NCBI GenBank assembly: GCA_045837725.1
Contig: JBEWZL010000069.1
Span: 1 to 64,000, forward strand
Source: Vermamoeba vermiformis
Taxonomy: Eukaryota
Direction of reading: 5' to 3'
Length of the DNA: 64,000 nt
In this document: one piece after another, positions 11,271 through 16,197 of the stretch
Numbering within the stretch: the stretch's first letter is position 1
Layout of the letters: every line of letters begins with the position of its first letter
Position numbers and translations under genes: made by a program
Notes under the pieces: generated by a model
Databases searched by the model: none
Told to the model about the DNA's origin: nothing
The model's input: only the letters and a program-made list of their open reading frames with translations

Positions 11271-12380
11271 TCAGAGGCCGGCAAACTTTATTGGTACAAC
11301 CACGGCAACAAACAGAATCAAGAGACTTACTACTACTATGTATGCAGTCCAGTTTCGGCTTCTCAAGGGTTGAACTGCCGAAGTCGCTTGCTTCGAAGTA
11401 TGTAGTTTCTTGATTTCAGAAGGAAAAGATGGATGTTCGAATAAGTTCTTGATTAGCACGCCTTCATTACTAATCCAAATTTTCTCTTCAGTAGATGTAT
11501 CCTTGTCACCCTTTCGCAGATGCATGGCAATTACTTTCCAACTGTTGTTAAACACTGGAGCGCCAGAGCTTCCTTTTCGAGTGTCGGTAGTGTAACGAAT
11601 TGTACCTAATTCTTCGTTCACTTTCACAATGACATTCTTCTGCAGCGACACTCGCTTCGTCGCGCCTTTTGGGTGACCAATAATATTGCAGCGGTCCAAT
11701 TTCATTGGTGGTTTTTCCACTAATGCAACATGCGGAACTTTGAAATCCTTTGGAAGGGTAATCTGAACAATTGCGCAATCAAGCTCAGCTATATATACAG
11801 GATCTGCTGCACTTGCCAAGCATCTGACCGGAACTTGGTCCTCTGTGACAAATAAGTAAATTCACGCAAATATTTTTAAACTTACCGTCGAAATCGAAGA
11901 TGAATTCAAAATTTCGGACATCGGATTTCATCACATGAAGAGCAGTCATGACGTGGCAAGTACTAATTAAGAATCCCGTTCCCATGTCAATTTCTGGTTG
12001 CTCGTCAGTCTTTTTTAGAACTATTTTGCAGACAGCACGTTGAATTTCGTCTCCTCGACGTAAAAACGAAATTGGAAGAAGAGTGTTTTCTGCTCCTGTG
12101 ATAGCTTCCAATAACATTTCTTCCGGAATTACTTCTTTATCCTTAAATCTGGTATACATTAATTAGTTTTTCTTCATCTTGGATCTCGAGTTACCCATCA
12201 ACAGCGCAGGATATTATGACGCTTCTTATATTGGTATTGTTTCCGGAGAAATTGGTTTCTGAAATGGTTAGAACGCCGATGGCTGCATTTGACAAACGTA
12301 CGAGGACCGAAATGGTTTGTTTGATAACCATTGTTTCCTTGTTGAAAGCCTGAACCTCCTGTATTATTGTATTGTTGCAT
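11271..12380 (-). CDS. Trypsin-like (bacterial V8/GluV8-type) serine protease with an N-terminal N/Q/G-rich amyloid-like motif and a C-terminal TM anchor
   Basis: Four in-frame exons. N-terminus MQQYNNTGGSGFQQGNNGYQTNHFGPQTNFSGNNTN. Catalytic motifs GTGFLI-TALHV (H), ELDCAIV (D) and TDTRKGSSGAPV (S), plus IAMH. Hydrophobic tail YIVVVSLLILFVAVVVPI. Confidence 0.88.
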
Positions 12381-12600
12381 TGTTCCGTTGGAATTAATTA
12401 AGGAACATAAAATAAATAAAGAAATAAAGCTTAACTTTTAAACGTCATGTGTGAAACATATTTCCTTAAATGTAGCTACGGAGCACTCCGAGTTTAAATA
12501 TGTATCCCCGTAAATCTCCGCAAAACCTGTCGCGAAAGTCTAAACGTCCCAAAAGCAGATATGTTGATTTTATTTTGTTTCTAGCGTCGATGAAAACATC

Positions 12601-13853
12601 ATGACTGAGCCTAAAAAGCTTATTGTAGTCTTAAATGTTGGCGATGTCACTCACCAGACATCCGTAAAACCTGACCAACAAGTTGCGGAGATAATCGGCA
12701 ACATAAAGGCAATTAAAACTGACCGCAAAAGAAAAAATTATTTGGCAATTGAACTGCAAGAAAATGACATTATATACAATAGTATAAACCAGAATTCGGT
12801 ATTGCTAAGTTTGGTACCAACGCGGTCTACCAACCAACCTGAATCCGAAGCTCCTTCTGCAGAAATTAGGACTCGAATATCCAGAAACCGCAGTAATAGT
12901 ACTATCGCAACTATACACCAGCAGACGAATATTCTTTTTGGACAGTTCCTAGCTGAAATGCAAAATGCCGTCGGCCAAGCCAAAATCAATTTGACTGAAG
13001 TAACACAAGAAGCCAAGGGTCAGATTGTCGAGGCTCTCAAAAAAGCAAACATTGGTGTACAGCAGAATCTCCAGCACAATGTCAACAATGCACCTGGCGG
13101 TAGTGCTAATGTAATGGGTTCAATAGTCAACAATCCACCTGGCGGTAGTGCTACAGTAATGGATTCAATAATCAACAAGTTCGAGCAAGCGTTAAATGAA
13201 GGAACGGTTGCACCTCGCAGTGAATCTGATGCTGCCCCAAATTCCAGCATAAATGCTTTTCTCAAACAGCTTGCACTAGAAATCGATACCGAAAAAACCG
13301 AAGAAGATAAATCCCAACTGTATGCATTTGTTGTTAAGCTGTTCCGGGTGCTGTTCGATAACGAAACGTTGGGCACAATTGTGCAGCTGCTGAAGAAAGT
13401 TCCTCAGTTCAGCAGGTAATCATAGCGACTACAACATTTGAAGTAATTAAACTGTTATTTCGTACAGTGTGGTATTAGAGAATCAGCTTCAAACGGTAGA
13501 TGCGATGCTAAAAATAGAAAAGATGGAGAAAGATCTTGCCACTCTGGTGACCAAAAACGAGCAAATCGAGAGACTTCTTCGACAACTTGTAAATTCAGTG
13601 GCTGGTCCGAACGCTGGCAAGATACCCGGTTTACATAACAATAATAACGTCCAAGCTGGTGCCAAGAAGGCTGAGCTATCTGATAGGTAAGTCTATATAA
13701 TTCACCTGAGCTGGTTAAAAGAAGTTAATTAACCTTGGTGGTCCTAACAGCGAAATGCAAGGCCCTTATGAATTCTCCGATCCGATGAAAAACGAAGATA
13801 AAAGTGAAGAAAATGATTCTGACGTTCCCATGCCAGATAGTCAGGAGGTTTAA
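12601..13853 (+). CDS. Unknown protein: possible beta-grasp-like N-terminus, central duplicated VNNxPGGSAxVM motif, helical/coiled-coil C-terminal part
   Basis: 272-codon first exon. GT-AG introns 13416..13467 and 13687..13750 keep the frame to TAA at 13851-13853. Confidence 0.75.
13081..13170 (+). repeat. 2 x 45-bp in-frame tandem repeat encoding VNNAPGGSANVMGSI / VNNPPGGSATVMDSI
   Basis: gtcaacaatgcacctggcggtagtgctaatgtaatgggttcaata followed directly by gtcaacaatccacctggcggtagtgctacagtaatggattcaata. Confidence 0.9.
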
Positions 13854-13899
13854 TTACCAATACTAATTAGTTATAAAGGATAAATTTCAAAATACAACG

Positions 13900-14127
13900 C
13901 TATTTCTTCGTGTTCGAATCTGGCTGTGGGCCATAATGGATCGTGTTGTACTGATGACCTTGCACATTTGAGGCACCTCCAGTAGCGTTGTTGATATTTA
14001 TCTGGCCGAAGGCATTGCTCTGAAAGCCGGAGTTACCTTGTTGAGTTCCATTAGGAAATAAAGCGGCAAATTGTTGATCCGGATGTCCTTTTGCCGCCCA
14101 GGGTGCGTCGGGTTTGTTGTTCTGCAT
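13900..14127 (-). CDS. 75-aa N/Q/G-rich peptide, putative stand-alone amyloid adaptor
   Basis: Single-exon ATG-to-stop ORF filling the gap between two genes. Carries QQGNSGFQSNAFG and NINNATGGASNVQG...HYGPQ, which match motifs in neighbouring proteins. Confidence 0.7.
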   Translation of the reverse strand: MQNNKPDAPWAAKGHPDQQFAALFPNGTQQGNSGFQSNAFGQININNATGGASNVQGHQYNTIHYGPQPDSNTKK

Positions 14128-14259
14128 TTGTTGTGGTGTTTCTAATGGTTACGCGATAATAAGCGCTTATCAACCTTGATGTAAAATAAATTTTAACGCG
14201 AGTTTTTCCACCTTTAATTAATTGCTCAACTATTTTTTATTTTGACACGAACCTGCGAC

Positions 14260-16197
14260 ATGGAAAGCACTTTAGATCGAAATGTTGCCCTTGTTGCGCT
14301 GCATATCTCCTGCAAAGTATCAAACTCTTCAGACAATCAGATAAACGAACTGCGTCAAGTCATCACTGAAAAGTTCGGCCGTATTCGCTTACCAAATCAT
14401 GCGCCCCTGTTGATAGAGCGATGCAACGAAGCGTTCAACCGAGAGATGTACCTTTGGCAAATAGACACAGAAAATTCTTTCATTGAACCACGGATTGCGT
14501 TTCAATTGGCTGATTCATTAATTGGATACAAAGATAGTAGTGCTACTTGGGAGATTGAGGACATAGAACCAATGTTTGATTTTGCAGAAGACCCGCGGGA
14601 ATCATCCGGAAAGAAGACAAAACAATTGAACGACCTACTGGATCAGCTCGGCGCTGCAATTGACCAAGATGATGGAAATGCTGCCTTCGATATAGCCCAG
14701 CGCATATTGGCACCTCCAGCAATTTTATGGAATCATAAACAAATCAACTTGACGGAAGCGGATCGTGACGGTAATGTTCCGCAATTGCATTTTACCTAAT
14801 TATTAATATATTCCGGCAGGCGAAGGCATAACAATAGCTCATATCGACACAGGCTATCAAGAACATCCCGAAATTGTTGATAGTTTACTGCGGGATGGTG
14901 GTGAAGGAATTGGCCGGGACTTCGTGCAACAACAATCGACGCAGGATGGAAAGGCCGATAACGGTAAATATTCATAGCTATTGTATCCATTAATACGTTA
15001 CAGGTGTCACCCATGGTTGTTCAACCGCCAGTGTGATCGTGGGAAAGAAGATCGGGGTTGCGCCGAAAGCCAAAGTAGGTTATTTATGTATAGCGTTGGT
15101 TCTAACTTAAAGCAGTTGCTTCCATTACGAACGAGAAAGCGAGGTGTAGTCTATTTGGATTGGAGCCCAATAATTCGAGCGTTGGCATACGTGAATACGC
15201 GAAACGATATTGACATTGTTAGCATGAGTCTGGGGGGTCCGTTCTTCTCCCGGGCAGTGCACAAACTGATTAGCAAAGTTGTTAAGAAAGGCGTCATCGT
15301 TATTGCAGCAGCTGGAAACCAAGTCCCATTAAGCGTCGTCTATCCCGCAAGTGATAAGTACGTCATCTCAGTGGCAGCATGTGATAAAACCGGGAAGGCC
15401 TGGCAGGCATCATCAAGAGGAACGAATTTGGTGACTACTGCACCAGTAAGATCGTCTTCAGCACTACGATTGACTAACTTATTGGCAGGGCGCGGATGTG
15501 CTTCGCGCAATGATTCATCACTTCAATGGGGAAGATTGCGAAGTTTACTGGGAAAGGTAAAAGCTTTTCTTTATCGGTGGTTTGTAATGCTAGTACATTT
15601 AGTTCTGGAACCTCCTATGCTACCGCACACATCGCTGGTGTTTGCGCTCTTTGGCTGCAGAAGAACAAGGAGCAACTACCAAGAGACGAGACAAGATTTC
15701 GCACCTTTAAAGCTATACTGAGCAAGAAGTCATTGCACACGCAACTACTTAAAAGCGGGGATCCTCTAAACGTTTTGTTTGGTGGTGGCATTGTAAACGT
15801 ACGAAACGTGCTGGATGCGGAAGTTCCCATAAGTGACTCGAGGAATGAAAGCAATGCTGAATCTTCAGAATCACCGGAGATGGCATTCTTGGCTAAGGAT
15901 TATCCAAACCTTTTCCAAAAGATACGCGGAGAAACTAATAGCTACATCCGTCAGAATTTTGCCCAAGAACTTGTTTTATACGCAATTATCGAGTCAAAGG
16001 AAAAACTAAAAGAGCTAAATAATAACCCTTCCAGTGCTCGTGGCAAGCCCTTCTCCAACAGCTTGAAACAGCTTCTTGTCAAGGAACTTTCCGAGAAAAA
16101 ACCCAGGCCTGCCGGTTACAGACATTGGGTTGTACCTATAGTGCTTGTAATGATTTGTGCACTTATTAGTATTGTACAATTAAAAGCATTTTATTAA
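14260..16197 (+). CDS. Subtilisin-like S8 serine protease with a prodomain and a C-terminal TM anchor
   Basis: Spliced exons give IAHIDTGY (D), THGCSTASVI (H), IVSMSLGG, AAAGN (oxyanion N) and SGTSYATAHIAG (S). Tail WVVPIVLVMICALISIV; no clear signal peptide. Confidence 0.88.

Follow-up and report, generated by a model that had tools for sequence, protein, structure and literature searches.

Can a short sequence element shared by neighbouring genes bind their products into one signalling system in an amoeba? The question is raised by four closely spaced genes at positions 11271–16197 of a 64-kb stretch of Vermamoeba vermiformis DNA (contig JBEWZL010000069.1, positions 1 to 64,000; referred to as the window). 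The genes form two head-to-head pairs: gene A, for a trypsin-like serine protease, faces gene B, for an orphan protein, and open reading frame (ORF) C, for a peptide of 75 residues, faces gene D, for a subtilase (Table 1). A reading of the DNA letters made without database searches (the sequence-only reading) had proposed that amyloid motifs in A, B and C relay a signal from B through C to a cascade of two membrane-anchored proteases. Our analysis confirms the observation behind this proposal and partly supports its interpretation: A, B and C are linked by a shared glutamine-, asparagine- and glycine-rich (Q/N/G-rich) module that is real, statistically unusual and sequence-specific.

The module is common to A (residues 1–48), C and B (residues 146–187), extends over 33–39 aligned residues and is built from two types of unit, A-type and B-type, each of about 15 residues. 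In A it lies directly upstream of the protease domain, contains GFQQGNNGYQTNHFGPQ and comprises 15 N+Q, 7 G and 2 charged residues. In B a degenerate A-type unit (NIGVQQN) precedes the tandem B-type units NVNNAPGGSANVMGS and IVNNPPGGSATVMDS, which have 15 residues each and are identical at 39 of 45 nucleotides, and which therefore go back to a recent tandem duplication. C carries an A-type, a B-type and a second A-type unit. When recounted, the motif matches of the sequence-only reading held: QQGNNGYQTNHFG of A and QQGNSGFQSNAFG of C are identical at nine of 13 positions, NINNATGGASNVQG of C and NVNNAPGGSANVMG of B at nine of 14, and TNHFGPQ of A and TIHYGPQ of C at five of seven, the glutamine of the A motif being reached across an intron (12259–12301) that is spliced in the sequencing run X4 described below. 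The sequence-only reading also gave the B-type motif as present twice in B; the second copy is identical to C at five of 14 positions. Longer collinear alignments join A(2–38) with C(17–56) and B(146–177) with C(28–61). With 10 of 17 (A–C) and nine of 14 (B–C) residues identical, the partner motifs of these neighbouring genes reach 59–64% identity.

The likeness is not an artefact of composition. The Smith–Waterman score of A(1–48) with C is 66 compared with 32–34 ± 6 for composition-matched shuffles (2,000 for each of the A–C, B–C and D–C comparisons), of which one and two of 2,000 reach 66; B with C likewise scores 66 compared with 32 ± 5.5, and none of the 2,000 shuffles attains it. D and C share no module (1,450 of 2,000 shuffles score as high), and neither A–B nor B–D contains a segment that stands above shuffles (72/300 and 79/300). 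A six-frame tblastn search of the window with C gave cross matches only to B (E = 2.4e-4) and, at E = 6e-4, to the N-terminus of A; after these, the E-value rises to 0.87. The motif patterns have no further occurrence in the window and none in 80 related loci (634,368 bases). A profile of the three copies, a scan that the sequence-only reading had envisaged, was run against 1,534 ORFs of the window and 24,273 of the loci and retrieved no further carrier, the best other match having E = 1.1. Within the sequences covered, the sharing goes beyond shuffled sequence and is confined to three adjacent genes.

The likeness exists at the protein level. Identical residues use the same codon in only four of 10 cases between A and C and in five of nine between B and C, and third codon positions account for 10 of 21, seven of 14 and five of seven nucleotide differences in the three comparisons. 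Random-substitution simulations seldom retained as much residue identity as was observed (P = 0.00025, 0.0076 and 0.013, values to be read with the reservation given below). Recent copying of DNA was considered as the source of the A–C and B–C likeness and rejected on account of the nucleotide identities (59% and 67%) and the divergent codons.

The gene models were built from sequence and then compared with the spliced contigs of run X4, which carry no strand and are 100% identical to the window. Short GT..AG introns (40–64 nt) interrupt A, B and D, in host DNA of about 40% G+C. All 10 of them are spliced out in the X4 contigs, which shows that the three genes are transcribed and bears out their modelled splicing; two introns of D that had been ambiguous (15075–15115 and 15557–15602) were decided by the same joints. 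The spacing and head-to-head order of both pairs agree with the sequence-only reading. At the 5′ end of D, the X4 contig diverges from the genome upstream of 14292 (window 14262–14292): the 30 contig letters upstream of this point match nowhere in the window at three or fewer mismatches, and the break lacks an AG acceptor. The start codon at 14260 and the 5′ end of D are therefore unconfirmed. The contig may be chimeric here, or D may have an unseen upstream exon. The raw RNA runs X19–X21, which carry the species label of the best DNA match, contain no read across the 5.1-kb stretch and were rated uninformative. Six-frame tblastn detected no paralogues of A–D elsewhere in the window.

Table 1. 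Coordinates of the cluster, its parts and neighbouring features in the window (aa, residues; KD, Kyte–Doolittle 19-residue mean).
Feature	Position	Strand	Remarks
Gene A, Trypsin_2-type serine protease	11271–12380	-	325 aa, four exons; ATG 12380
Gene A exons	12380–12302, 12258–12195, 12148–11886, 11842–11271	-	introns 43, 46, 43 nt
Module of A	12195–12380	-	aa 1–48
Hydrophobic C-terminal segment of A	11289–11345	-	aa 302–320 of 325; KD 3.0
A–B divergent intergenic region	12381–12600		220 bp; no X4 contig depth in bin 12397–12567
Gene B, orphan protein	12601–13853	+	378 aa, three exons; ATG 12601
Gene B exons	12601–13415, 13468–13686, 13751–13853	+	introns 52, 64 nt
Module of B	13036–13164	+	degenerate A-type unit, two B-type units
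ORF C	13900–14127	-	75 aa, single exon; ATG 14127
C, A-type unit	14043–14005	-
C, B-type unit	13998–13957	-
C, second A-type unit	13944–13924	-
C–D divergent intergenic region	14128–14259		132 bp; X4 contigs end 14168, restart 14292
Gene D, S8 subtilase	14260–16197	+	572 aa, six exons; ATG 14260
Gene D exons	14260–14770, 14820–14963, 15004–15074, 15116–15445, 15489–15556, 15603–16197	+	introns 49, 40, 41, 43, 46 nt
Hydrophobic C-terminal segment of D	16126–16182	+	aa 550–568 of 572; KD 2.62
Ubiquitin-family ORF	10963–11217	+	85 aa; Pfam 7e-14; 50 bp from A stop, convergent
ORF with weak LRR_6 and C-terminal F-box-like matches	16709–18322	+	537 aa, single exon; 510 bp downstream of D
Tandem array of related genes	26076–45336	+	coiled-coil, SAM, U-box; ORF starts 26076, 29459, 30136, 31629, 33850, 34745, 43842, 44305
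DUF7869 ORF	41320–42480		within the array region
Lon protease exons	53475–54779	-	AAA, Lon lid, Lon_C

Both proteases retain their catalytic residues, as had been stated. A matches Trypsin_2 (PF13365; Pfam E = 5.6e-15 and 56.8 bits on exon 4, cutoff 27.6), and its His (TALHV), Asp (ELDC) and Ser (GSSGAP) align with those of bacterial homologues in five-way columns. D matches Peptidase_S8 (PF00082; E = 5.1e-13 and 9.2e-5 on two exons, 49.4 and 22.3 bits, cutoff 21.8), and its Asp, His, oxyanion Asn and Ser (DTG, HG, AAAGN and SGTS) align with the S8 proteins of two bacterial loci, L081 and L007. Each protease has one strongly hydrophobic stretch, placed in the last 25 residues, and a non-hydrophobic N-terminus; the first 25 residues of A have a mean Kyte–Doolittle (KD) value of −1.5 and so lack a signal-peptide-like start. 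From hydropathy we read A and D as tail-anchored proteins with their catalytic domains in the cytosol, in line with the C-terminal transmembrane anchors suggested before. A weak likeness between A and D is confined to the tail region (6/300 shuffles score as high). In the N-terminal 170 residues of D no Pfam or PADLOC family was found, and their predicted structure is poor (mean pLDDT 43.8). A shows weak PADLOC matches to models of defence-linked proteases (RT-Protease_XI, 2.7e-7).

Close relatives of the A protease domain are few. The protein P0001, 60% identical to A, has a hydrophobic C-terminal tail as well; P0002 is a bacterial-looking relative, and in the Atlas A falls among bacterial Trypsin_2 clusters. 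No close relative was found in metagenome contigs by single-protein search or in viral contigs by alignment; an alignment-based scan of metagenome contigs for relatives of A yielded 80 loci. The best of these, L001, is a eukaryote-like contig of 2,211 nt and 36% G+C with homologues of A (47–50% identity) and D (35–53%, and 78% around the His motif), which are convergent, tail-to-tail and 2 nt apart, both with hydrophobic tails and interrupted frames. An S8 gene adjoins a Trypsin_2 gene in four of 134 loci (L001, L007, L081 and L031, including the top match of each collection), and the bacterial-type pairing is rare (three of 133 bacterial or metagenome loci besides L001). In L081 (Pelosinus baikalensis) the S8 gene is divergent from a fusion of Trypsin_2, EEP and Endonuclease I, and L007 is a three-gene operon for a 463-residue protein, an S8 peptidase and a Trypsin_2-HhH protein. 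This operon (L007 92–3403) is bacterial-looking with overlapping genes, and its 463-residue protein has a glycine-rich hydrophobic C-terminal part and no Pfam or PADLOC match; it may act as effector in a protease-gated system. The Trypsin_2 proteins of L007, L081 and L031 are of the same subfamily as A (39–49% identity in the best segment) and have an adjoining S8 gene as A does; unlike A, they carry neither a Q/N/G-rich module nor a tail anchor, and those of L007 and L081 are fused to HhH or to EEP and Endonuclease I. The N-termini of bacterial A homologues are not Q/N/G-rich (39 of the 80 metagenome loci inspected, four aligned). Because the conserved start of their protease domain aligns with A only from about residue 55, the A module occupies the site of other N-terminal sequence in bacteria. 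A limited literature search turned up no report of eukaryotic contigs that pair a trypsin-like with a subtilisin-like protease, both tail-anchored and of bacterial type.

The other two carriers of the module have no recognisable family. B has no Pfam match and no PADLOC match at E ≤ 0.01; the predicted structure of its exon 1 has a mean pLDDT of 41.2, and in the AF2 model pLDDT is below 50 over residues 163–186, which hold the units. The first 60 residues of B give a low-confidence model with a strand/helix/strand pattern that could be ubiquitin-like. C is the longest possible ORF of its frame, takes up 228 bp of the 406-bp interval that separates B from D, and matches two different neighbours in that frame only. 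It contains 21 N+Q among its 75 residues and has no hydrophobic segment (maximum KD −0.14); at least one ESMFold2 run modelled it with pLDDT below 50. Coverage of C by an X4 contig ends at 14168, 41 nt upstream of the ATG, and the next 123 base pairs are uncovered, as would suit transcription that starts here and proceeds away from D. We consider C to be probably translated. Given its order of A-type, B-type and A-type units, it could be a two-sided adaptor. A complex prediction for B(140–200) with C scored 0.00 in a run without controls.

Known amyloid signalling motifs are G/N/Q-rich, about 20–40 residues long and common to the products of neighbouring genes (PMC5485727, PMC7889193, 10.1101/2020.01.06.895854, 10.1101/2024.11.07.622273). 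In fungi, three-gene clusters share one motif, namely PP in HELLP/SBP/PNT1 of Chaetomium globosum and sigma in SESA/SESB/HET-eN of Nectria haematococca; the sigma motif has about 40 residues with repeats of two submotifs, and PP and RHIM have a GxQxG segment in common (PMC5485727, PMC7889193). The present cluster is similar in that the products of three clustered genes carry one short G/N/Q-rich motif, in that the module has two unit types, like the sigma submotifs, and in that A contains GFQQG, like the GxQxG of PP and RHIM. It differs from the fungal clusters in having neither an NLR/STAND receptor nor a HeLo-type or lipase effector; the effector here would be a tail-anchored Trypsin_2 protease with an N-terminal motif, one carrier is a free peptide of 75 residues, and the motif of B is internal.

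In amyloid signalling pairs, one partner carries pseudorepeats and the other a single copy (10.1101/2020.01.06.895854, PMC5485727, 10.1101/2024.11.07.622273), and bacterial partners that cross-seed are 43–56% identical (10.1101/2020.01.06.895854). Of the bacterial amyloid signalling sequences (BASS), BASS1–10 belong to Bell/NLR pairs; BASS11 in the antiphage pair Bab/Agp of E. coli works without an NLR, and it is also found with CHAT, TIR and EAD7 (10.1101/2024.11.07.622273). As in BASS pairs, the neighbouring genes studied here have a common motif, repeated in one partner and single in the other, at 59–64% compared with 43–56% identity. Whereas BASS motifs are proven formers of fibrils and prions, the present module is a candidate, and whereas BASS effectors are membrane-targeting helical domains, the candidate effector here is a protease. 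The words trypsin and peptidase occur zero times in the main text of the BASS preprint, which describes no adaptor peptide either.

A further parallel is offered by bacterial conflict systems, in which short folded adaptor domains (EADs) link a sensor to a neighbouring trypsin-like peptidase (PMC10907252), and by the widespread prokaryotic protease–effector modules, in which Pepco/Trypco and EACC1 stand beside trypsin-like or S8 proteases and small neighbours of these types become toxic after one site-specific cut (PMC12642450). The present cluster resembles these systems in that a short non-enzymatic element occurs in a putative sensor and in a neighbouring trypsin-like peptidase, in that an S8 peptidase and a small protein lie beside the protease, and in that A has its closest relatives, as far as the protease domain is concerned, among bacterial Trypsin_2 proteins. 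Unlike the folded EADs, the module is Q/N/G-rich and of low complexity, no STAND NTPase accompanies it, and the setting, with introns and predicted tail anchors, is eukaryotic.

The reading we favour, if tentatively, is that homotypic and possibly amyloid-like assembly through the module recruits protease A; if it is right, the comparisons suggest a cluster that resembles a known type of system with new features. The module would then be the homotypic assembly element of three products from one compact, divergently transcribed cluster. B, a largely helical protein with one degenerate A-type and two B-type units, would provide the scaffold or sensor side, C with its A-type, B-type and A-type units would be the two-sided adaptor, and A would carry its A-type unit as an N-terminal extension where bacterial relatives have other N-terminal regions. 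Assembly of the modules, possibly by beta-rich, amyloid-like templating, would gather the cytosol-facing, tail-anchored A on a membrane, and the gathered copies would be switched on as proteases. D, itself predicted to be tail-anchored, would be coupled to A as substrate, activator or co-effector via the conserved gene linkage and not via the module. The steps that we infer are binding through the module, the direction in which the signal runs, activation by proximity, and a role in cell death or immunity. The relay from B through C to A that had been proposed agrees with the build of C, its direction being one of these steps; as D carries no module, only linkage connects it with the proposed protease cascade. 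That the module is amyloid specifically seems doubtful. We also think it unlikely that the cluster encodes the full design of an NLR-independent, amyloid-like signalosome of a non-fungal eukaryote, with a 75-residue adaptor that templates from B onto A, a pairing of A with a subtilase and a new motif family.

Several observations weigh against assembly through the module. Comparison of the module (A exon 1, 26 residues; C, 75 residues; B, residues 140–200) with Pfam-A, which we take to include the RHIM, HET-s, PP (Ses_B) and sigma models, returned no family at E ≤ 10; of these motifs, RHIM and PP had been named for comparison by the sequence-only reading. Among PDB chains there was no match either (best E = 7.2). 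The module of B is internal and contains proline, unlike the terminal motifs of known systems, and B itself has no homologue at E ≤ 0.01 among 594 candidates and no usable Atlas match. For C, an exhaustive phmmer search of 1.84 billion representatives gave no homologue at E ≤ 0.001, and a word-based search of proteins of 41–132 residues found none. The X4 contig over C also includes exons 2 and 3 of B; since it is strandless and continuous with these exons, the coverage of C could stem from a long 3′ untranslated region of B. Synteny, which the sequence-only reading had proposed to check in relatives, holds in so far as the pairing of A and D recurs in L001 and in three bacterial loci; L001 has no B or C between both proteases and ends before the N-terminus of its A homologue. 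STAND and NLR domains (NACHT, NB-ARC) were absent from the window ORFs scanned (20 ORFs, namely 19 of the 25 ORFs of at least 150 residues and the 85-residue ubiquitin-like ORF), as had been noted for NLR genes, and the only P-loop matches were weak ones in the Lon AAA exon. Finally, the P values of the random-substitution simulations are inflated because the alignments had been chosen for looking alike.

The module might instead be a recognition or cleavage element of a protease, or a pro-peptide, with C and B as substrates (latent effectors or pro-peptides) or as decoy inhibitors of A or D, and with the N-terminal extension of A as a pro-segment removed at or near FGP-Q. This is a rather unlikely explanation, to which a number of facts nevertheless lend substance: prokaryotic pairs of a protease and a small propeptide activated by a cut have been described (PMC12642450), A has a bacterial-type protease domain, with the weak defence-protease match mentioned above, [FY]GPQ is found both at the boundary between extension and protease domain in A and near the C-terminus of C, and C is small and lies between two protease genes. 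However, 33–39 aligned residues with two unit types go far beyond a typical cleavage site, and B has mainly the B-type unit, which is absent from A. C lacks a hydrophobic or amphipathic segment of the kind expected of a pore former, and by sequence neither C nor B is a Pepco, EACC1 or gasdermin protein, there being no Pfam match for either and no PADLOC match for B in libraries that possibly lack Pepco and EACC1 models. Alternatively, local duplication or exon shuffling of low-complexity Q/N/G-rich sequence could have left the likeness as a functionless by-product, with C as a non-coding remnant (3′ untranslated region of B or intergenic DNA). The ongoing tandem duplication in B would suit such an origin, as would the strandless contig that runs on from B exons 2–3 over C, the absence of C from the protein collections searched, the lack of reads in the three same-label RNA runs (uninformative, as said) and the Q/N-rich tracts that also occur elsewhere in the window (e.g. 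in the ORF at 9174–9395). A decaying remnant would, however, not be expected to keep its residues while codons diverge with an excess at third positions. The ORF also fills 228 bp of a 406-bp interval with a frame that alone matches two neighbours; the contig end upstream of the C ATG and the uncovered base pairs behind it fit a start of its own, and the shuffle tests exclude composition alone. We regard this origin, too, as rather unlikely.

Still less probable, in our view, is that the module serves in targeting or phase separation, as a prion-like low-complexity tract that co-locates A, B and C in a condensate or on an organelle surface without templating. Its richness in N, Q, G, S and T and its few charges (15 N+Q and two charged residues in A(1–47), and the N+Q content of C given above) are what such a tract would show, and the low pLDDT of C and of B 163–186 is of the same kind. 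Yet the position-specific identity of nine of 13 and nine of 14 residues lies far above that of shuffles with the same composition, which points to a sequence-specific rather than a composition-driven constraint.

The remainder of the window provides the context of the cluster. The LRR/F-box-like neighbour downstream of D was considered as a motif-bearing receptor and rejected, as it has no module match. The plus-strand genes of the tandem array, one of which has MORC S5, look like a lineage-specific expansion of ligases of the SAM/U-box type. Rfam gave a single tRNA in the window. DNA or RNA near-identical to 11200–16300 is found in runs under four organism labels and one metagenome label; the organism of the window may be carried along with other samples, either as an associate or as a contaminant.

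A review of 2021 lists among its open questions whether NLR-independent signalling amyloids exist and whether RHIM is the sole metazoan motif (PMC7889193). With three short peptides and one protease, the cluster is a compact test case. Should the module prove to be a cleavage site, the bacterial logic of a protease plus a latent small effector would be present in a eukaryote. Should it assemble, the known designs would gain a new motif family, and with it a free adaptor peptide and a protease in the role of recruited effector; and if the signalosome reading were true, the amoeba would possess a protease switch at a membrane surface that is built on a new family of amyloid signalling motifs.

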